DNA from: Sporomusaceae bacterium | GTDB lineage: Bacteria > Bacillota > Negativicutes > Sporomusales > UBA7701 | Assembly (NCBI GenBank): GCA_031460455.1 | Contig: JAVKTQ010000016.1 | Coordinates: 3,429 to 67,428 of the forward strand | Direction: 5' to 3' | Length of the DNA stretch: 64,000 nt | Part shown: piece after piece, positions 976-39,252 of the stretch | Layout: every line of letters begins with the position of its first letter | Position numbering within the stretch: the stretch's first letter is position 1 | The notes under the pieces: model-generated | Database searches by the model: none | What the model saw: only the letters and a program-made list of their open reading frames with translations | Told to the model about the DNA's origin: nothing | Position numbers and translations under genes: made by a program

Positions 976-1160
976 TGCCCACCTCTTTCTGTGACGATTG
1001 CGAGCACCTATATATATTCCCCGCCCTGAGGCCTTTTCCTTGCGGCCTGACCGGGACTAATTTCCTATCCGCAGCAAAAAAGGTAAACGACATAATCCGA
1101 CGAACTATCTCATAGAAGTATGTCTTGCCAAATTATCCTGGCCTTGGAGGCAAGAAGAAG

Positions 1161-2282
1161 ATGAGTACGCGACAATCCGGCCGCGGGCAGCGGGGCAACG
1201 ACAGCGTCGTCCGCGTGCAGGCCGATATCCGCGACGGCGTGGAACAGGAAAGAATGAAGCGCTATGCGCGGGAATACAGACAGAGCAAAGAGGTCGAGGA
1301 GGCGCTGGCCAACCTGAGCCGCTTCACGCTGCGGCCGGTCGATTATGTCCCGGCTTTGACCCGCAAGGAGTGGGTCGAGCCGGCCATCCCCGATTTCAGC
1401 TATATCCTTATCGAGACGCGTCTGAAGGTGACGAACAAGTATCTGGCGGCGATCGCCAGCCTATTGCTCGGTGGCTTGTTCTTCGTCATCCTCAGCCTGG
1501 CATTTATGGATTCTTTCGTGCCGATCATCGGCGTCATCGGCCTGGCGGCCTGCACCCTTGCTCTTAACCGGGAGCTGCAGAACCGGCGACGGGAAGTCGA
1601 CCGCGCCCTGACGACGGCCCGCGCCGATATCGAGCTCCGCCTGAAGGAGCTGAGGGAAAAAATCGAGGAGGAGCGCCAGACATTCGAGGCGGCGGAGAAT
1701 CAACGGATAGAACGGGTCGAACGCCTGCTGAACGCCGACCCGGCCGCGGTCTTCGAACGGATCGAGGAGGTGCTGCAGAGCTACAAGCTGCCCTTTTATC
1801 TGCGCTGCACCGTCGACTTCTACGATATGGAGCCGCTTCTCACCCTCTACCTTCCCGGGCACAATGTCATCCCGCCCAATATCGTGAGCCTGTCGCAGGC
1901 CGGCGTCATCGACTACGAGGAAAAAACCGCTACGGCGATCAACCTGCAGTACAGCGAGGCGCTGGCCGGCACGGCGGTTACCCTGGCGCTATTGCTGTAT
2001 ACTTACCTGCCGCCGCTCGATGTCGTGTACGTACGGGGGATGTTCGACCGCGGCGAGAACCCTGCGTGCTATTACTGCCTGCGGCTTACCCGCCAGGCGG
2101 CGTTCGATATCGTCGAGGCGGCCAGCGGCGTTGAGGCATTCCGGCAATTGGAGGCGCGGTTCGCGATCGGTCAAAACGGCATTTTCGACCCGGTTGAAGA
2201 ACAGTTGCTCCCCGATTGGTGGGAGGCTTCCCCGCGCGAAGGGGTGCTGACGGCAAAGCTAACAATACCGTCGAAGTTTTAG
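1161..2282 (+). CDS. Hypothetical membrane-anchored coiled-coil protein
   Basis: GGAGG RBS at 1146-1150 and ATG 1161. Two TM helices (YLAAIASLLL...LALN) are followed by a charged coiled coil and a globular C-terminus. Confidence 0.75.
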   Translation: MSTRQSGRGQRGNDSVVRVQADIRDGVEQERMKRYAREYRQSKEVEEALANLSRFTLRPVDYVPALTRKEWVEPAIPDFSYILIETRLKVTNKYLAAIASLLLGGLFFVILSLAFMDSFVPIIGVIGLAACTLALNRELQNRRREVDRALTTARADIELRLKELREKIEEERQTFEAAENQRIERVERLLNADPAAVFERIEEVLQSYKLPFYLRCTVDFYDMEPLLTLYLPGHNVIPPNIVSLSQAGVIDYEEKTATAINLQYSEALAGTAVTLALLLYTYLPPLDVVYVRGMFDRGENPACYYCLRLTRQAAFDIVEAASGVEAFRQLEARFAIGQNGIFDPVEEQLLPDWWEASPREGVLTAKLTIPSKF

Positions 2283-2415: not shown

Positions 2416-3102
2416 CTGAAAGTACTGTTCTGGGATATCGACGGCACCCTCCTCCGCACGGCCAAGGCCGGCCTGTTCGCTTTCCGGCAGGCGACCGAGG
2501 ACCTTTACGCCGCCAGCCCCGATTTCAACACAGTTAAAACGGCCGGCATGACCGACTGCCATATCGCCGCCCAGATCATCGCCCTGGCGAGCGGGCGGGA
2601 GCCCCGGCCGGGGGAGACCGAGGCGCTGGTGGAGCGGTATATAGCGTTGCTGCCCGAGCATCTTGAGGCCCGCCGGGGGTTCGTCATCCCGCCGGTGGCC
2701 GACATACTGGAGTATCTCGCCGGCGAACCGGGCTATGTGTCGCTGCTGCTGACCGGCAACACGTCGGCCGGCGCCCGCGCCAAACTGACAAGCTACGCCA
2801 TCGCCCATTATTTCGATTTTGCGGCGAGCGCGTTCGGCGACGACTGCCTGAGCCGCTCGGACATCGCCGCCCGGGCGCTGGCGAGCGCGCGGCAGCGCTA
2901 CCCGGCGGTGCCGCCTGAGGATATATTCGTGATCGGCGACACGCCGAACGATATCAGCTGCGGCAAGGCGATTGGCGCCCGTACGGTGGCGGTGGCCACC
3001 GGCACGTACACGGCGGCCGAGCTGGCGGCCCACTCGCCCTGGTGGGCGGTGGAACAGCTGCCCGCCCCGGCCGATTTCGCGGCGAAACTGGCGGAGAAAT
3101 GA
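2416..3102 (+). CDS. HAD-superfamily hydrolase (phosphoglycolate phosphatase-like)
   Basis: Motif I DIDGT, LLTGN, motif IV IGDTPND. The start is probably CTG 2416 (AAGGAG at 2401-06); the exact start is uncertain. Confidence 0.9.
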   Translation: MKVLFWDIDGTLLRTAKAGLFAFRQATEDLYAASPDFNTVKTAGMTDCHIAAQIIALASGREPRPGETEALVERYIALLPEHLEARRGFVIPPVADILEYLAGEPGYVSLLLTGNTSAGARAKLTSYAIAHYFDFAASAFGDDCLSRSDIAARALASARQRYPAVPPEDIFVIGDTPNDISCGKAIGARTVAVATGTYTAAELAAHSPWWAVEQLPAPADFAAKLAEK

Positions 3103-3135
3103 AAAAACCTCCCGGACAAAAGTCCGGGAGGTTTT
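3102..3135. terminator. Bidirectional intrinsic terminator (copy 1)
   Basis: AAAACCTCCCGGAC-AAAA-GTCCGGGAGGTTTT, 14-bp stem including A/T tracts. Confidence 0.85.
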
Positions 3136-3142
3136 GTGTGTG

Positions 3143-3291
3143 CCGTATCTCCGAATTGCCGGGACCGTTTAGAAGGTCCCAGATGCAAGGCGCACCGGAA
3201 AAGCGCGCCGCGCCGCGTACTCGGACGTACGCAAGCAAGCGCTTTGAGGAGCAACGCCGCAGATGGGGCCTTATCAACGGTCCCCCTGTAC
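3143..3291. repeat. Structured dispersed repeat, copy 1 (MITE/REP-like)
   Basis: GGGACCGTT...AACGGTCCC outer arms (26-bp imperfect IR, 21/26), core CCAGATGCAAGGCGCA...GCGTAC-N6-GTACGC...GAGGAGCAACGCCGCAGATGG. Homologous to 4845, ~14107 and 36346. Confidence 0.9.
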
Positions 3292-3304
3292 ACTGCCTGA
3301 GGAT

Positions 3305-4687
3305 TTATTCGCCGGCCAGCTTCAGGCCGTACAGGGCGGCCTCGTCGTCGGGGTTTATCCTTATCGCCGCCCGGAAGGCTTGCGCGGCTTCGGCCGGGAG
3401 GTCGACCTTGAGGTTGTGGTAGCCGTCCTTCATATGGTTGGCGTAGTGGTCGAGCAGCTTCCCCTCGGCGTCGCAGTAATAGCCGAACGACCTGACGATA
3501 TTTAGCCGCGGATAATAAACGCCCACCCCGGACGCCACCCACCGCCCGCTCTTATCGATGAACCCTTTCCTGTCGCCGTCTTCCGCCCGCACTATGCCGT
3601 TTTCAAACCAATGGGCAGCGTAAGAGAACCGCGGCGTGATCGCCAGCTCACCCTTGGTATTGATAAATCCTTGCTTTCCGGCTGTCGATACCCAGGCCAT
3701 CCCTTCGGCGAAATTAACGCCATTATCAAACCTGGGCGTGTCAAGCAGGCGGCCGGTGCTGTCAAGGTACCCATACTCGCCCTTGCCGTCCTTAAAAAAG
3801 CGCCAGATGACTAGAAACGGCTCGCCCTTGATATCAGGGTACCCGGCCGAAACGAACTGCGGCTCCACAACCATCCGCCCCGTATTATCAATGAACCCTA
3901 CCAACCCATCCGCGGTCCAGACCGCCGCCAGCCCTCCCCAAAAGCGCAGAGCGTTCTTATATTGCGGCTCAATGACCATTCGGCCGGTACGGTCGACGAA
4001 GCCCCACTTGCCGTCCACCATCACCGCCGCCAGTCCCTCGGAGAAAGAACGGTTCGACTCCAGATCGAACTGCGGCGGAATAACAAAATTGCCGAGCGTG
4101 TCGATAAAGCCTTTTTTATCACCCACTCTCACCAGCGCCAGGCCTTCGCTGAAGGACCGCTCCCCGTCGAACTGCGGCTCGACGGCCACCCGCCCGCCGG
4201 CGCTCACGAAGCCGAACTTGCCGTTCTCTTCGACGACGGCCATACCTTCGACCATGCGGTCGATCTCAACAAAACGAGGCTCGGTCACCATCGTTCCCGT
4301 CTGGTCGATTATGCCAATCTTGCCGTTTAACACTACCCGGTAAAGATTATCGCTGAAGTTGTAGGCATTTTCGTAGCGGGGCTGAATAACAACCTGCCCC
4401 GCCCGATCCGCAAATCCCCATTTACCGTCGAGCTTAACGGCCAGGTATGAATCGTTTTTCTCCAGCTCCGCAGCATCGTTGGGCTCCATCTTAATCGCTT
4501 CGAACCGCGGCGGAATAAGCCATCTGCCGGTGGCGATCTCGATCAGGCCTGTCCGTTCCCCCTGCGGCAGCCGGACAGTGAACGTGCGGGCGTCGTTGTA
4601 ATTGTAGCGGGAGCTTTCTCCGCGCGCGGACGGGCATGTCGCCCCCATCAGCAGTACCGCCATCAGGCCGCATAGTAACCTTTTCAT
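3305..4687 (-). CDS. Secreted WG (KWG)-repeat protein with a short C-terminal TPR-like helix pair
   Basis: N-terminal signal peptide, about 7-8 repeats of G(K/L)(W/F)GF(I/V)D..G...I.PQF..A..FSEGLA.V, GGGAGG RBS. Confidence 0.92.
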   Translation of the reverse strand: MKRLLCGLMAVLLMGATCPSARGESSRYNYNDARTFTVRLPQGERTGLIEIATGRWLIPPRFEAIKMEPNDAAELEKNDSYLAVKLDGKWGFADRAGQVVIQPRYENAYNFSDNLYRVVLNGKIGIIDQTGTMVTEPRFVEIDRMVEGMAVVEENGKFGFVSAGGRVAVEPQFDGERSFSEGLALVRVGDKKGFIDTLGNFVIPPQFDLESNRSFSEGLAAVMVDGKWGFVDRTGRMVIEPQYKNALRFWGGLAAVWTADGLVGFIDNTGRMVVEPQFVSAGYPDIKGEPFLVIWRFFKDGKGEYGYLDSTGRLLDTPRFDNGVNFAEGMAWVSTAGKQGFINTKGELAITPRFSYAAHWFENGIVRAEDGDRKGFIDKSGRWVASGVGVYYPRLNIVRSFGYYCDAEGKLLDHYANHMKDGYHNLKVDLPAEAAQAFRAAIRINPDDEAALYGLKLAGE

Positions 4688-4733
4688 CGGCTATCCCCTC
4701 CCAATTCGTATGCGGTAAGTCCTCTTACGGCAT

Positions 4734-4763
4734 ATTATACCATATATTGGAATTATTTGTCAC
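4734..4763 (-). promoter_or_regulatory. Promoter of the WG-repeat gene
   Basis: Minus strand GTGACA, 18 bp, TATAAT, with TG extension. Confidence 0.6.
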
Positions 4764-4803
4764 TTTCCGCTGTCGAATTCCCCGCCAAGCTGACGGAGAA
4801 ATG

Positions 4804-4839
4804 AAAAAACCTCCCGGACTTTTGTCCGGGAGGTTTTTT
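4804..4839. terminator. Bidirectional intrinsic terminator (copy 2, loop inverted relative to copy 1)
   Basis: AAAACCTCCCGGAC-TTTT-GTCCGGGAGGTTTT. Confidence 0.85.
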
Positions 4840-4844
4840 GTGTG

Positions 4845-5052
4845 CCGTATCTTCGAATCGCCGGGACCGTTCAGAAGGTCCCAGATGCAAGACGCACCGC
4901 AGGCTGACACCACCGTTTCCTCCGCGACATTGTTTAGATACGTTGTTTGCACAGGATTGGTATAACAGCATCGCGCGTACACGAACGTACGCTGAGGATG
5001 GCAGCCGAGGAGCAACGCCGCAGATGGGGCCTTATCAACGGTCCCCCTGTAC
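4845..5052. repeat. Structured dispersed repeat, copy 2, with a 63-nt internal insert
   Basis: Same arms and core as copy 1; extra segment 4912-4974 replaces GGAA of copy 4. Confidence 0.9.
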
Positions 5053-5910
5053 GCTGGCAGAAGACTTAAGGGCGGGGATGGCGTAGCGGGCGACTATGGC
5101 CGCCAATATAATCGCGCCGCCGGCGAGCGACCACGGGCCTGGCATTTCGCCGAGGAGGAGGAAGACCCAGATGGGGTTTAAGATGGGCTCGATCATGGTG
5201 ATGATGGTGGCCTCTAACGCGGTGACGTGCTTGATGGCGACGGAGTAGAGGACGTAGGAGAGGCCGAGCTGGAAGCAGCCGAGGAGGACGATGGCCCCCC
5301 AGCCGGCAAGGCTGGGACCGCCATCGAGCATGAAGGGGATGCCGCCGACGAAGGCGAGGATGTTGCCGAGCAGGACGGAGCCGAAGGGGGAGCCGTCTTT
5401 TTGTTTGCGCATCGCCAGGGCCATGACGGTCATGCTCATGCCGCTGGCGACGGCCAGCAGGTTGCCGAGCAGGTGGCCGGCCTCCATCTGGTCCTGGAAG
5501 AAGAGGATCATGCCGCCGAAGACGAGGCCGATGGTGAGCCAGTCGAGGGCGGTGGTTTTCTCCTTGAGGAACCAGGCGCCGAAGAGGGCCACCCAGATGG
5601 GGGCGGTGTACTGGAGGACAATGGCGTTGGCGGCGGTGGTGAGCTTGGTGGCGCTGACGAACATCATGACGGTGGCTACGTAGCCTAAAGCGCCCAGGAC
5701 CTGCACTTTGCTGATGTTGAGCGGCTGGCCGCGGAAGGCCAGGCGGATGACGATGGCGGCGATGAGGCTGCGCGCGCCGGAGATGGCCAGCGGGTGCCAG
5801 TCGACCGATTTGATGAGGAGGCCGCCGCTGCTCCAGAGGACGGCGGTGATGACGAGCAGGATGAGGGCGCGAAAGTGCTCCGATTTGCCGGAGCCTGCGA
5901 GCAGGTTCAC
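5035..5910 (-). CDS. EamA/DMT family transporter
   Basis: 10 hydrophobic segments, ANAIVLQYTAP and IEPILNPIWV motifs, GTG start at 5910. The longer ORF start at 6132 is a shadow extension. Confidence 0.92.
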   Translation of the reverse strand: MNLLAGSGKSEHFRALILLVITAVLWSSGGLLIKSVDWHPLAISGARSLIAAIVIRLAFRGQPLNISKVQVLGALGYVATVMMFVSATKLTTAANAIVLQYTAPIWVALFGAWFLKEKTTALDWLTIGLVFGGMILFFQDQMEAGHLLGNLLAVASGMSMTVMALAMRKQKDGSPFGSVLLGNILAFVGGIPFMLDGGPSLAGWGAIVLLGCFQLGLSYVLYSVAIKHVTALEATIITMIEPILNPIWVFLLLGEMPGPWSLAGGAIILAAIVARYAIPALKSSASVQGDR

Positions 5911-5947
5911 TTGTGGTCTTCCTTTCCGGCGCGGCCGGTTTGTAGTG

Positions 5948-16958: not shown

Positions 16959-17035
16959 TGGGGAGTCGCCAAGCTGGTTAAGGCATCGGACTCTGACTCC
17001 GACATTCGAGGGTTCAAATCCTTCCTCCCCAGCCA
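16959..17035 (+). tRNA. tRNA-Gln (anticodon CTG)
   Basis: Acceptor TGGGGAG/CTCCCCA, anticodon arm TCGGA-CTCTGAC-TCCGA, GGTTCAAATCC T-arm, encoded CCA. Confidence 0.97.
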
Positions 17036-17039
17036 TCAT

Positions 17040-17115
<76 letters not shown>

Positions 17116-28562: not shown

Positions 28563-28586
28563 GGTCTGGCCCCCCGATGGCTTTTT

Positions 28587-28655
28587 CACTCGTAGCCGGC
28601 AATTTACGGTTGCCTGTAGAAACTTCCGGGCCGTATCCCCAAAATTATACGAGAG
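28587..28655 (-). ncRNA. Purine (guanine-type, C74) riboswitch
   Basis: CUCGUAUAA...GAUACGG...AGUUUCUAC...CCGUAAA...GGCUACGAG, with P1/P2/P3 and kissing loops in consensus positions. Confidence 0.93.
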
Positions 28656-28764
28656 TATTTAGTTGCGCTTTTATTTTACCTTTGACGACAAATAGTGTCA
28701 ACGAGGGGAACGGGACGCCCCGCTCCCGCGGCGAAAATAAAAAACAGGCTGCCGCCTGTTTTTC

Positions 28765-35275: not shown

Positions 35276-35512
35276 ATGGGTGAAGGAGATTGCCTTGTAA
35301 TTCCGGGAGTGTACCGCCACTACAAGGGGAATATGTACCGGGTGATAGGCGAGGCCACCCACAGCGAGACGATGGAGCGGCTGGTCGTTTACCAGGCGCT
35401 GTACGGCGAACGCGGCCTGTGGGTGAGGCCGTGGGCGATGTTTTGCGAGACGGTGACCGTGGGCGGCGAGGAGAAAGCGCGTTTCGCTTATGTCGGGGCC
35501 GACGGGGCCTGA
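35276..35512 (+). CDS. DUF1653 domain protein
   Basis: PGVYRHYKG..Y.V...A.HSET.E.LVVYQALYGE..LWVRP..MF. Confidence 0.95.
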   Translation: MGEGDCLVIPGVYRHYKGNMYRVIGEATHSETMERLVVYQALYGERGLWVRPWAMFCETVTVGGEEKARFAYVGADGA

Positions 35513-36258
35513 CGGATTTTCGCCGCTTTGACGGCGGCGACCCGTTTGCGGCGGTCGAGGCCGTGCTCCTTGGTGAGATACCTGGCAAGGCCGTCGATAT
35601 CGGGGAAGACGCTGTATTCGTTGAGCCCGGCGAGATGGAGGAAGGCGCGCGCCTCGGGAATCGCGGCGGCGGGCAGGGGTATCTGGGTGACGCAGTCGGG
35701 GCAGATTTCCTCAAGGGGCTTTTCGATGGCGCCGTGGATGGTGAAGTGGCCCTTCTGGGCGAAGATGCGGGGGTTCTGCATGGTGGGGAAGATGGCGAGC
35801 GGGTGCTTAAGCCTTTTGCCCAGGTAGAGCACCTTCTCGTGCTCGTGGTCGTAGTCGACGGCGTCGGACTGCACGAGCAGGCCGTGGCCGGTGGCCTTGT
35901 AGTTAAGTTTGTCTGGCTCGAGGACCCAGATGCAAGGCGCGTCGGGCTTGCCGCTCACGGCGAAGTACAGGGCGACGGCGAAGGTGGTCGTCCAGTCGAG
36001 GAGGCGCGTGGGGATGCCGGCGTGCCGCATCTCGAAGAGGGTCTCGATCGGCTTGAGCGACTGGGTGTTGACGATGGGCTTGGCGAACGAGAAGAAGTCG
36101 AAGAAGACGTTGCACTCGGTGTACCTTTTCCGCCTGACCCGGAAGAGGCTGGGCAGCAGGGTGAAACAAGCGCTGGGGCAGCCGCGGTAGAAGGGGTACG
36201 GCACCCCTTTGGTCGCCGTCTGCACGCCCTGGAGGAATTCTTGCCACGCATCGCTCAT
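35488..36258 (-). CDS. FRG domain protein
   Basis: YRG, MRHAGIPTRLLDWTT...VALYFA, NPRIFAQKGHFTI, SVFPDIDGLA. Confidence 0.92.
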   Translation of the reverse strand: MSDAWQEFLQGVQTATKGVPYPFYRGCPSACFTLLPSLFRVRRKRYTECNVFFDFFSFAKPIVNTQSLKPIETLFEMRHAGIPTRLLDWTTTFAVALYFAVSGKPDAPCIWVLEPDKLNYKATGHGLLVQSDAVDYDHEHEKVLYLGKRLKHPLAIFPTMQNPRIFAQKGHFTIHGAIEKPLEEICPDCVTQIPLPAAAIPEARAFLHLAGLNEYSVFPDIDGLARYLTKEHGLDRRKRVAAVKAAKIRQAPSAPT

Positions 36259-36345: not shown

Positions 36346-36496
36346 CCGTTATTCTCTGAATTGCCGCGGCCGTTCAGAAGTGCCCAGATGCAAGGCGCAC
36401 CGGAGGCTGACACCGGAAGCGTACACGCACGTACGCTGAGGATGGCAGCCGAGGAGCAACGCCGCAGATGGGCGCTGCTGGGCGGCCGTAATGTAC
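36346..36496. repeat. Structured dispersed repeat, copy 4
   Basis: Same core as copy 2 without the insert; arms changed to GCGGCCGTT/GGCGGCCGT; shared flanks CCGT.AT.CT..GAATTGCCG and TGTAC. Confidence 0.9.
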
Positions 36497-36498
36497 AA

Positions 36499-39150: not shown

Positions 39151-39252
39151 CTCTCATCTGTCAGGCAATGCCTGCTGGATTTGGCACCTTGCGCCGTAGC
39201 GCCGGTTGCCGTGGTGTCATCGGGCCAGTCCCTCGACCACTCTCGATAAGAG
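39151..39252 (-). ncRNA. SAM-I (S-box) riboswitch
   Basis: CUCUUAUCGAGAGUGG.CGAGGGACUGGCCCGAUGA..CC.CGGCAACC...GGUGCCAAAUCC.GCAG...CUGACAGAUGAGAG upstream of metX-metY. Confidence 0.97.

Follow-up and report, generated by a model that had tools for sequence, protein, structure and literature searches.

The HAD/EamA junction is duplicated around a WG-repeat gene

How did a single WG-repeat protein gene (WG) come to lie between two copies of the junction that joins its neighbours, a HAD-family hydrolase gene and an EamA-family transporter gene? In the 64-kb stretch of Sporomusaceae DNA analysed here (the window), R1 (3073-3307) and R2 (4775-5068) are direct repeats, and each is a copy of the whole HAD/EamA junction in the order HAD tail, bidirectional terminator, linker, hairpin element S and EamA tail. 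Only WG and its promoter stand between them. A sequence-only reading had explained this arrangement by Campbell-type integration of a circle carrying a diverged junction copy, with S as a possible recombination core, and had proposed a minimal single-gene cassette system. The features of the locus, and a third copy of S elsewhere in the window, are as follows.

2416..3102, forward strand: HAD-family hydrolase gene (HAD); Pfam HAD matches, 96% identical ortholog in L001
3103..3135, no strand assigned: terminator hairpin T; terminator scan, perfect palindrome
3136..3160, forward strand: linker between T and S1, GTGTGTGCCGTATCTCCGAATTGCC; compare L008
3149..3293, forward strand: S1; covariance model 161 bits, fold z = -3.35
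3246-3291 = 5007-5052, forward strand: 46-nt identity, the sole long perfect identity of R1 and R2, against about 92% in the left parts
3274..3307, reverse strand: EamA-tail remnant e'; sequence reading and comparisons with relatives
3305..4687, reverse strand: WG-repeat protein gene; PF14903, E = 5e-75
4734..4763, reverse strand: predicted WG promoter; GTGACA, 18-nt spacer, TG-TATAAT, 11/12 consensus in the promoter scan
4775..4804, forward strand: HAD-tail remnant a' (EFPAKLTEK*); 24/30 nt identity to 3073-3102
4805..4839, no strand assigned: terminator hairpin T'; stem as in T, TTTT loop
4851..5054, forward strand: S2; covariance model 111.6 bits, two repeat families (D4, D9)
5035..5913, reverse strand: EamA-family transporter gene (EamA); ORF list, Pfam EamA, 97.3% amino-acid identity to L001
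36354..36498, forward strand: S3; covariance model 142.5 bits, unrelated intergenic site

The repeats described in the sequence-only reading are real. They align in two blocks, 3065-3197 against 4767-4899 (133 nt, 86% identity) and 3246-3307 against 5007-5068 (62 nt, 92% identity), and 29-33-nt repeat probes gave no chance matches in shuffles. The left end of R1 is formed by the last nine codons and the stop of HAD (3073-3102, DFAAKLAEK*), and the diverged HAD end that had been recognised in the second copy is indeed present as a'. T is composed of an A-tract, a 14-bp stem, an AAAA loop and a T-tract, and is predicted by the terminator scan to terminate both HAD (+) and WG (-). The terminator stems are the same in R1 and R2 but the loop is flipped, AAAA against TTTT, so that one hairpin matches the reverse complement of the other at 34/34 nt. 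Further to the right, the copies share 21 of the 23-25 nt of the linker, 35/37 nt of the left arm of S, 46/46 nt of its right arm and 11 of the last 16 nt, whereas the S interiors are unlike (48 against 107 nt). The 46-nt identity in the right arm is proposed to be a crossover or conversion tract. The repeats run past S by 88 nt on the left and 23 nt on the right, into the HAD and EamA coding tails.

The WG stop codon lies at the edge of R1, as had been read, and R1 retains an in-frame EamA remnant, e', reading KSSGSVQGDR*. The EamA end itself had been placed differently: the stop of EamA is the TGA at 5035-5037, within the right arm of S, and the TAA at 5066-5068 is out of frame. R2 therefore holds an EamA tail of 11 codons, partly inside S, rather than about 20 nt. 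The same stop in S is used by L003, L005 and L008. The distal 14 nt of e' are also similar to the native 3' flank of WG, so the joint falls in microhomology. WG encodes a 460-aa product with a signal peptide. The unique DNA between the repeats consists, as described, of WG and its promoter, with the -35 element (4758-4763) 11 nt from the repeat edge, and this promoter is kept in all WG loci, among them those of L001, L004, L018 and L020. The lower GC content reported for WG was recovered (58.7% against 63-68% in the flanking genes), but the gap is modest. A Pfam scan of the roughly 45 window ORFs found no recombinase or transposase, in agreement with the sequence-only reading, and none was found among the called genes in the syntenic ±8 kb of L001 and L003. 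With no recombinase in the window, it is the RecA-mediated alternative of that reading that survives. Long repeats were found around none of the other genes in the 64 kb, which speaks against a cassette system.

Both novel joints were seen in the source run only, where they are covered by Logan contigs at the depth of the flanks. The duplicated architecture is not an obvious assembly artefact. It could in principle reflect mis-phasing, in which the chromosomal junction is cargo-free while WG and the second junction lie on a separate 1.76-kb circle or at another locus. The 46-nt identity is longer than the 31-nt words of Logan, the contigs break there (starts at 3262 and 5023), so that neither S interior can be joined to e' or to the functional EamA tail, e, and the word graph is the same for both states. 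However, the WG contigs have a depth of 916-938 compared to 920-961 for the flanks, and a replicon-less circle held at one copy per chromosome is unlikely. Furthermore, any read of more than about 80 nt covers the 46 nt, which gave the original assembler what it needed for phasing. We regard mis-phasing as extremely unlikely.

S is a dispersed hairpin repeat

Covariation in S was strong. Its 36 pairs had 96.3% of cells paired, whereas shuffles reached 87% and slid controls 35-45%, and 20 pairs showed compensatory change across 20 copies. Its ends are perfect 9-nt inverted repeats, GGGACCGTT / AACGGTCCC, and its termini read GGGACCGTT(C/T)AGAAG ... TTATCAACGGTCCC, with no GTTRRRY. A search of Rfam gave no match to S at the gathering score or at E <= 10, only weak terminator-driven matches. 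The window holds three copies of S, other MAGs hold several per 8-kb locus, and the depth of the S core was about 200 times the single-copy depth in four runs. S is thus a dispersed, strand-specific hairpin repeat with roughly 100-200 copies per genome, and it is not special to the HAD/EamA locus. This dispersal, together with the differing insertion points of other alleles described below, speaks against S as the recombination core.

S1 is 91.7% identical to the S of L001 over its full length, and its interior type is that of the orthologous junction S in L001 and L003. S2 has a different type of interior, which matches S3 at 98% over 54 nt, and about 62 nt (about 4912-4973) are additionally inserted at its apex; run X2 contains a related S copy without 4912-4974. 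Interiors are exchanged among S copies. The filled/empty pair L013/L014 showed no target duplication and a small palindrome at the empty site. In L021 S stands in place of a terminator, and in L005, L014 and L089 S hairpins were lost by arm-to-arm deletion. Clusters of the form S-gene-S-gene-S, with one low-GC gene, were observed in L012, and synteny between L012 and L016 breaks at S. The L012 array showed no homology beyond S. No RAYT transposase was found in the 64-kb window.

The junction has varied contents in relatives

Sequence comparisons show that the HAD/EamA junction, at which two convergent genes meet, is a rearrangement hotspot. In this group of Negativicutes, near Anaeroselena, the background junction has the bidirectional terminator and one S, whose right arm provides the stop codon of EamA, and in the Anaeroselena-like clade a conserved module of M23 then WG was inserted between terminator and S. 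Four lineages (L005, L007, L088 and L091) have an empty junction, HAD then EamA, and those of L088 and L091 also hold a full S. The cargo is a 230-aa low-GC gene in L008 and an alpha/beta hydrolase in L089/L090. The empty and alternative alleles that had been suggested as a check therefore exist, but the close relatives all hold an M23-peptidase and WG pair without junction duplication, as HAD-T-WG-M23-S-EamA with a single junction in L001, L003, L004, L021/L028 and runs X2 and X3. The pairing of M23 with WG is conserved and recurs at other loci in distant genomes (L018, L020); in this strain M23 has been lost. The linker at 3136..3160 is unbroken, as in the cargo-free junction, compared to L001/L003, where the M23-WG pair is inserted here. 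The cargo enters at different points, namely inside the HAD tail of L008, within the linker of L001/L003 and at an S stump in L089. None of the other junction alleles has flanking repeats, so that the duplication is confined to the window, and no donor or second genome with the architecture of the window was found.

These comparisons bear on a dedicated cassette system, in which a recombinase encoded elsewhere would recognise S and insert or excise single genes in the manner of integron attC sites or of hairpin-guided single-strand transposition. Four different junction contents in relatives, always beside S, would fit such a system, as would the strand-specific conserved hairpin with its variable interior, the L012 clusters with their low-GC gene and the L012/L016 synteny break. 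However, given about 100-200 intergenic copies, S beside variable spots is expected for any REP-like repeat. The insertion points differ among L008, L001 and L089, the repeats occur in the window alone and reach past S into coding DNA, WG has its own promoter and the depth of its flanks, the L012 array lacks homology beyond S, and the window contains no recombinase. With WG resident in every close relative, the other alleles without repeats and the joints restricted to the source run, the proposal of a minimal single-gene cassette system is not supported, and we consider a dedicated system very unlikely.

WG is the ortholog of a resident gene and the second junction copy keeps older states

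WG is the ortholog of the WG resident at this junction in relatives, and hence not a newcomer. It is 90.9% identical in nucleotides to the WG of L001 and 87.8% to that of L004, and pairwise WG identities rank in the same order as those of the flanks. The flanks match L001 at 95-98% identity as far as the junction, and four-fold-site divergence between the window and L001 was 0.184 in WG compared to 0.10-0.12 in four flanking genes (Fisher p = 0.005). States of more distant lineages (AAG, CACTGCC and GAATAA) occur in the remnants a' and e' and in the WG stop, and these states are missing from the functional HAD and EamA tails of the window, a and e, and from the WG of the closest relatives. In particular, a' has GCC AAG CTG like L091, L088 and L007, whereas the window's own HAD differs, and it begins at GAATTC, matching GAATCC after the M23 stop in L001. 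The remnants differ from the functional copies at 6/30 (a') and 5/16 (e') positions, far more than the approximately 5.5% per-lineage neutral divergence since the L001 split (binomial p about 0.01-0.001), although this dating is rough because the remnants are small (30 and 16 nt). In their character states, the second junction copy and the ends of WG are older than the resident copy.

The older states weigh against remodelling in situ without foreign DNA, by replication template switching or by a series of unequal exchanges that used the same microhomologies (GTGC, GAATYC, TGCC..GA). Such remodelling would start from HAD-T-WG-M23-S-EamA, with M23 deleted and the junction duplicated before it was remodelled. 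Parsimony on the flank tree makes M23-WG the ancestral arrangement of the window and L001, microhomology is present at every joint, the same linker joint is common to both repeats, and T and S are both palindromes, the flipped loop of T' being of the kind made by palindrome strand switching. However, at least four switches or events are required, and a recent copy should nearly match its source, whereas a' and e' diverge as above and carry states foreign to the gene ends of the window. The WG stop is also of the older type and not that of the sister lineage. We consider this route unlikely, although it deserves some weight.

Somewhat more doubtful is the possibility that the duplicated form was the primary product of the original M23-WG insertion and that the single junction of the relatives is derived by deletion. 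The relatives would then have lost the left S hairpin and a'-T', and the window would be the old form minus M23, which would agree with its older WG stop and the older states of a' and e'. If 3144-3299 is removed from R1 between its two TGCC repeats, the result is T-GTGTGCC-TGAGGAT-TTA, near the T-to-WG-stop DNA of L001/L003/L004 (GTGTGC-AGGAC-TAA, GATGTGC-GGAGGC-TAA), GAATCC stands in L001 exactly where a' starts, and arm-to-arm loss of S is visible in the three loci noted above. Against this, WG and the flanks nest the window in a clade whose other members are all single-junction, so the old allele would need to have persisted or been re-imported. The short motifs could just as well be the native 3' flank of WG, given that L018 has TGCCAGAATTA at a locus without EamA, and GAATCC is found in L001 only.

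A one-off homology-driven event may account for the duplication

The reading that we put forward, with about even chances of being correct, is a one-off homology-driven (Campbell-type) structural variant with microhomology joints, not a dedicated cassette system. In this strain M23 is gone, and WG, which retains its promoter and roughly 10 nt of native 3' flank, lies between two unbroken junction copies. Illegitimate recombination at short microhomologies would first have made both novel joints, one between the WG 3' flank and the EamA tail (TGCC..GA..TTA) and the other between the WG upstream flank and the HAD tail (GAATYC), yielding a unit of WG plus junction (e'-WG-a'-T'-linker-S). The joints lie in 6-14-nt similarities between the WG flanks and the junction edges; their exact positions are ambiguous, given such short microhomologies and the likeness of the EamA tail to the WG flank. 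No single known step accounts for the origin of this unit. The model requires two illegitimate joints and a cargo-free resident junction, and the sister lineage L001 has the M23-WG insertion.

The unit, as a circle or as an allele of a related lineage, would then have recombined in a RecA-type reaction with a resident cargo-free junction, by exchange within the 46-nt right arm of S. The resident side would have contributed a, T, the linker, the type-A interior of S1 and e, and the incoming side e', WG, a', T' with its flipped loop and the S2 interior of type B. The observed distribution fits this, as the 46-nt identity separates a, T and the type-A interior from the incoming set. However, S interiors also exchange among copies, so the split between resident and incoming interiors could instead be later gene conversion. 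As a result of the event T would be common to HAD and WG, EamA would have gained T', which would now end EamA and insulate the WG promoter, and WG would retain its own promoter. The circle integration originally suggested is thus formally compatible with the architecture, and its diverged copy with the older-state junction, but WG itself is the ortholog of the resident gene and not a newcomer.

Relation to known systems

Several features match Campbell-type integration (single-crossover, RecA-dependent insertion-duplication): the insert lies between two direct copies of the target, each of which may be a hybrid of resident and incoming DNA, the longest perfect identity is found where exchange would have taken place, and relatives have unoccupied targets. 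In contrast to that process, the locus has no vector, plasmid or phage backbone, only one gene and 0.3 kb of homology. Joints at few-nucleotide microhomologies beside a homologous anchor, with no need for a dedicated enzyme, also recall homology-facilitated illegitimate recombination and short-junction duplications, although these were described in transformation experiments on other bacteria, and the present locus requires two joints.

Like an integron cassette with its attC site, the locus has a single gene and, after it, an imperfect hairpin whose outer stems are conserved, whose interior varies and whose structure is kept on one strand only. Unlike such cassettes, it has no IntI in the window, S lacks the 7-bp core sites RYYYAAC/GTTRRRY and is dispersed genome-wide rather than arrayed, the repeated DNA enters both neighbour genes, and other alleles at the site have other boundaries. 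Integron cassettes are also usually promoterless and expressed from Pc, whereas WG has its own predicted promoter. A site-specific element with attL/attR differs in that no integrase was found in the window and cargo boundaries vary (L008, L001/L003, L089).

S itself resembles REP/REPIN, ERIC and Correia-like MITEs, being made of two inverted conserved arms that form a long hairpin with a variable middle. REPINs have been described previously (PMC3116915, PMC3337134). As with REP/REPIN-type repeats, S is found at about 100-200 intergenic copies, often just past stop codons, varies in presence between relatives and stands at synteny breaks. It differs in its greater length (145 nt, reaching 254 nt where modular inserts are present), in its occurrence in Negativicutes, in the lack of a cognate RAYT in the 64-kb window and of target duplication in L013/L014, and in that one copy gives EamA its stop codon. 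There is only a slight chance that S is the substrate of a putative trans-acting recombinase or single-strand transposase that drives single-gene capture, duplication and exchange at convergent-gene junctions. If such an enzyme did act on S, the window would be a fresh product and the single-junction alleles of the relatives the decayed form, and Negativicutes would possess an attC-like or REPIN-like gene-shuffling system.

Two copies of a gene junction bracket the WG gene

The HAD and EamA genes of this locus converge, and a single gene encoding a WG-repeat protein (WG) lies between them. These genes and the other features of the window referred to here are listed below.

Features of the window
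2416-3102, plus strand: HAD-family hydrolase gene, convergent with the EamA gene
3305-4687, minus strand: WG-repeat protein gene, 460 aa (PF14903, E = 5e-75), the sole gene between HAD and EamA
5035-5913, minus strand: EamA-family transporter gene, ending at TGA 5035-5037
16959-17112, plus strand: two tRNA genes
28573-28672, minus strand: purine riboswitch (71.6 bits), upstream of xanthine dehydrogenase/permease genes
35488-36258, minus strand: FRG-domain protein gene (PF08867), directly adjoining S3
36354-36498, plus strand: S3, the third window copy of hairpin element S
39151-39252, minus strand: SAM riboswitch (95.6 bits)

Two pairs of direct repeats bracket WG, 3065-3197 with 4767-4899 (133 nt, 86% identity) and 3246-3307 with 5007-5068 (62 nt, 92%). 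The chance expectation for 29-33-nt probes taken from the repeats R1 (3073-3307) and R2 (4775-5068) is zero, confirming that the bracketing described in the sequence-only reading is real. Each repeat is a complete copy of the gene junction. The HAD tail, consisting of the final nine codons and stop, is identical at 24/30 nt (DFAAKLAEK* in R1, EFPAKLTEK* in R2). It is followed by a terminator hairpin of the A-tract/T-tract type (T in R1, T' in R2) with identical stems and a loop of AAAA versus TTTT, a linker of ~25 nt (21 identical) and element S. The left arms of S match at 35/37 positions and the right arms at 46/46, while the interiors (48 vs 107 nt) are partly unrelated; the final 16 nt match at 11. 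T and T' are mutual reverse complements (34/34). Only their loop (3119-3122 vs 4821-4824) is inverted, with stems and flanks still direct, which makes it a palindrome loop flip.

The EamA frame had been taken to end at TAA 5066-5068. Instead, it continues to TGA 5035-5037 within the S right arm, a stop shared with three related loci (L003, L005 and L008), so R2 holds the last 11 EamA codons. R1 retains an in-frame EamA remnant, KSSGSVQGDR*. Between R1 and R2 lie only WG and its promoter (11/12 consensus matches, -35 at 11 nt from R2). From the sequence, EamA is predicted to end inside the R2 copy of S and to be terminated by T', and WG to be transcribed from its own promoter and terminated by T, which would also serve as the HAD terminator on the plus strand. 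The GC content of WG is indeed lower than that of its neighbours, but the gap is modest (58.7% vs 63-68%).

S is a high-copy hairpin repeat

The S family consists of unannotated hairpin repeats of a known kind, ~145 nt long and up to 254 nt with modular inserts. Its closest likeness is to REPIN/REP-type or ERIC-like repeats (PMC3116915, PMC3337134). No Rfam family matched at the gathering score or at E <= 10, and a literature search on repeats in Sporomusaceae or Anaeroselena found nothing. A strict pattern search located S in several Selenomonadales MAGs, at loci with no relation to the junction. S copies also occur at L010-L016 and L021. A covariance model built from nine copies found 20 copies in the DNA examined, three of them in the window. 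Over these 20 copies, 96.3% of cells were paired, compared to 87% in shuffles and 35-45% with slid partners, and 20/36 pairs showed compensatory changes. G.U and U.G pairs were frequent on just one strand, and the reverse strand scored far lower; the hairpin is therefore maintained in single-stranded form with a fixed polarity, as RNA or as single-stranded DNA. S-family sequences were present in a metatranscriptome, where DNA carry-over is possible.

In the run from which the window was assembled and in three other runs, the S core had ~200x the single-copy depth, indicating a family on the order of 100-200 copies per genome. Read consensus was lost outside ~3165-3280. The HAD tail, terminator and EamA tail are outside the family. 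Independent insertions of S are thereby ruled out as the origin of the repeats, since the homology reaches the HAD tail (24/30) and passes S rightward, whereas the high-copy family ends at ~3165 and ~3280. We also considered whether terminator and linker belong to a longer mobile unit, given the similar hairpins and CGTATC linkers at L011 and L016. The DNA upstream of these is unlike the HAD tail in R2 (a'), so the reading of a' as a HAD remnant stands.

Close relatives differ in the presence of S (L013 has a copy where L014 has a small palindrome). S decays by arm-to-arm deletion in L005 and L089 and lies at synteny breaks between L012 and L016. S copies also occur between HAD and the gene upstream of it at L021 (1234-1435), where the copy replaces a terminator hairpin present in the window and L001, and at L007 (7841-7910). 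That upstream gene encodes a conserved 385-aa protein (window 1125-2282, plus strand), syntenic in ten of ten relatives and matching nothing in Pfam or NCBIfam. At L012 (903-2952), three S copies in 2 kb bracket two single genes, with no homology continuing past S. One of these genes is low in GC (49.5%), and its 183-aa product begins like a signal peptide. The minus-strand genes of L012 stop within a few nt of the S right end, as do WG and EamA in the window. Neither WG nor gene 2 of L012 matched NCBIfam or PADLOC.

The junction is a hotspot in relatives

By its HAD homologs, the window belongs to the Negativicutes and lies near Anaeroselena agilis (L003). We compared ten related junctions, whose flank tree is (L089,L005), (L007,(L088,L091)), (L008,((L003,L004),(L001,window))).

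Contents of the junction in relatives
L007: empty, without S
L005: empty, S stump
L088, L091: empty, full S
L008: 230-aa, 41% GC gene inside the last HAD codons, then intact terminator-linker-S-EamA
L089/L090: alpha/beta hydrolase, 416-422 aa
L001 (96% HAD identity), L003, L004 (M23 broken by an IS fragment), metagenome contigs L021/L028 and related strains in two other sequencing runs, X2 and X3: HAD-terminator-WG-M23 peptidase-S-EamA, single junction

Ten related lineages thus show four content states, including both the empty junctions and the alternative cargo that had been proposed as a check. These varied contents indicate that the junction is a hotspot, as had been suspected. The 230-aa cargo of L008 had no match in Pfam, NCBIfam or PADLOC. 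The junction duplication is absent from every other allele read, and cargo boundaries vary from allele to allele.

L089 (5686-5735, 6964-7040) is sister to L005 in the flank tree, yet it has the other terminator type, GTGTGCGGGGACTAA and the hydrolase cargo. Homologous recombination seems to have brought in this allele whole from an L004-like lineage. GGACTAA, considered as a common cassette end of L001-type alleles and L089, is better read as the WG 3' flank and stop, left when the L089 cargo replaced WG-M23.

WG is a resident gene that has lost its partner

WG in the window is 90.9% identical in nucleotides to that of L001 and 87.8% to that of L004. The left flank follows the same order (93.7% and 87.0%), and the right flank is 95.9% identical to L001. 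On this evidence WG is resident rather than a new arrival. An exact-protein look-up for WG returned no record. Outside this synteny, the closest WG genes (72% and 67% aa identity) lie directly downstream of an M23 peptidase gene in unrelated neighbourhoods, showing that M23-WG is a conserved two-gene module; the M23 protein there aligns with that of L001 across nearly all of the shorter protein. The module entered once, between terminator and S, in the Anaeroselena-like clade, and M23 has been lost from the window. At L004 (10100-10690), most of the M23 gene is replaced by an IS-like fragment with an orfA-like helix-turn-helix ORF, a further, independent loss. The A. agilis WG at the same site (L003 8763-10202) has ~50% nt and 42% aa identity to the window gene over most of its length and >90% nt identity over its last ~150 nt. 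Such a pattern indicates allelic replacement with a breakpoint inside the gene.

Signs of separate ancestry in the middle part

Up to the very edge of the junction, the window flanks share 95-98% identity with L001. Divergence from L001 at four-fold sites is 0.184 for WG, compared to 0.10-0.12 in four flanking genes (p = 0.005). The remnant a' differs from the window's functional HAD tail (a) at 6/30 positions, and e', the EamA remnant in R1, from the functional EamA tail (e) at 5/16. This is well above the ~5.5% per-lineage neutral divergence since the L001 split (binomial p about 0.01-0.001). a' carries GCC AAG CTG, as do L091, L088 and L007, where the HAD tail of the window and its close relatives has AAA. 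e' carries CACTGCC, as do L091, L008 and L005, where the EamA tail of the window and L001 has CTGG. WG ends in GAA TAA in the window and in the distant L018, and in GAA AAT TAG in L001, L003 and L004.

The two S interiors also differ. That of S1, on the HAD side in R1, is of the same type as the orthologous S of L001 and L003 (91.7% identity, full length). That of S2, on the EamA side in R2, is of the other type, type B, and over 54 nt shares 98% identity with S3. The ~62-nt apical insert of S2 (4912-4973), which is richer in AT, is absent from the other type-B copies read (S3, L011, L016 and a related copy in X2). The second junction copy is diverged, as proposed.

A proposed two-step recombination history

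The WG 3' flank (TGCCTGAGGAT-TTA) is similar to the EamA tail (TGGCAGAAGAC-TTA) and also to the native WG flank in L018 (TGCCAGAA-TTA). At its upstream end, the WG segment stops exactly at the M23 end of L001 (GAATCC) and is joined to the HAD tail at GAATTC. These likenesses place both joints in microhomologies, a hallmark of illegitimate recombination rather than of a fixed recombination core, the role suggested as possible for the structured repeat.

We infer a history of two steps, to which we give an even chance. First, illegitimate recombination at both microhomologies, whether in this lineage or in a related lineage, would have produced a unit of WG and junction (e'-WG-a'-T'-linker-S). 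Ordinary homologous recombination between this unit and a cargo-free resident junction would have followed, the exchange falling within the S right arm. The resident, L001-like parts would be a, T, linker, S1 interior and e, and the older incoming parts e', WG, a', the flipped T' and the S2 interior. This history yields exactly the observed partition.

Three single events do not. A tandem duplication or an excision and re-integration, each starting from the relatives' arrangement, or a cargo-free circle integrating into an M23-WG allele, either places WG on the wrong side of a'-T' or interrupts the terminator-to-S linker, and all three were rejected. In-situ remodelling from the relatives' single-junction arrangement is unlikely, as we found no derivation in fewer than about four steps. 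The reverse direction, with the relatives' form derived from a duplicated precursor by hairpin deletion, appears more doubtful still.

Of the indexed public runs, the source run alone contains the two window-specific joints. Logan contigs span both joints, but are built from 31-nt words, shorter than the 46-nt identity, and so cannot tell which S interior belongs with which of the two right ends. An identical word graph would result from a chromosome lacking the cargo plus a free 1.76-kb circle, but the integrated form is far likelier given the equal depth and ordinary read lengths. Depth is 916-938 over WG and 920-961 over the flanks, hence no sizeable WG-less subpopulation is visible. The 'skips 1775' joints are not excision products: they have 14 additional letters and represent other S copies of the type-B interior.

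The sequence-only reading was right in the Campbell-like form of the structure, the hotspot and the diverged second copy. Its minimal single-gene cassette system finds no such support. As that reading had stated for the window, no integrase, transposase or recombinase was found among ~45 scanned window ORFs, nor among called genes around the relatives' loci. A Pfam scan gave no match in the stretches 40.9-42.6, 47.3-50.4 and 56.8-59.5 kb. No second gene bracketed by long repeats, another proposed check, occurs in the 64 kb, and both joints lie in microhomologies. With nothing specific in its favour, a dedicated S-based cassette system is highly improbable. The structure is a neat but ordinary scar of recombination, and nothing at the locus points to a new recombination mechanism.

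Collectively, the locus is a clean natural case of a convergent-gene junction with a high-copy palindromic repeat becoming a hotspot of insertion and rearrangement, with the joints preserved in the one allele that retains both junction copies. In the longer run, the S family may prove more useful than the locus. In Sporomusaceae-like genomes it will break short-read assemblies and confound synteny, and at this junction its right arm gives EamA its stop codon. S merits testing as a REPIN-like mobile element or as an RNA.
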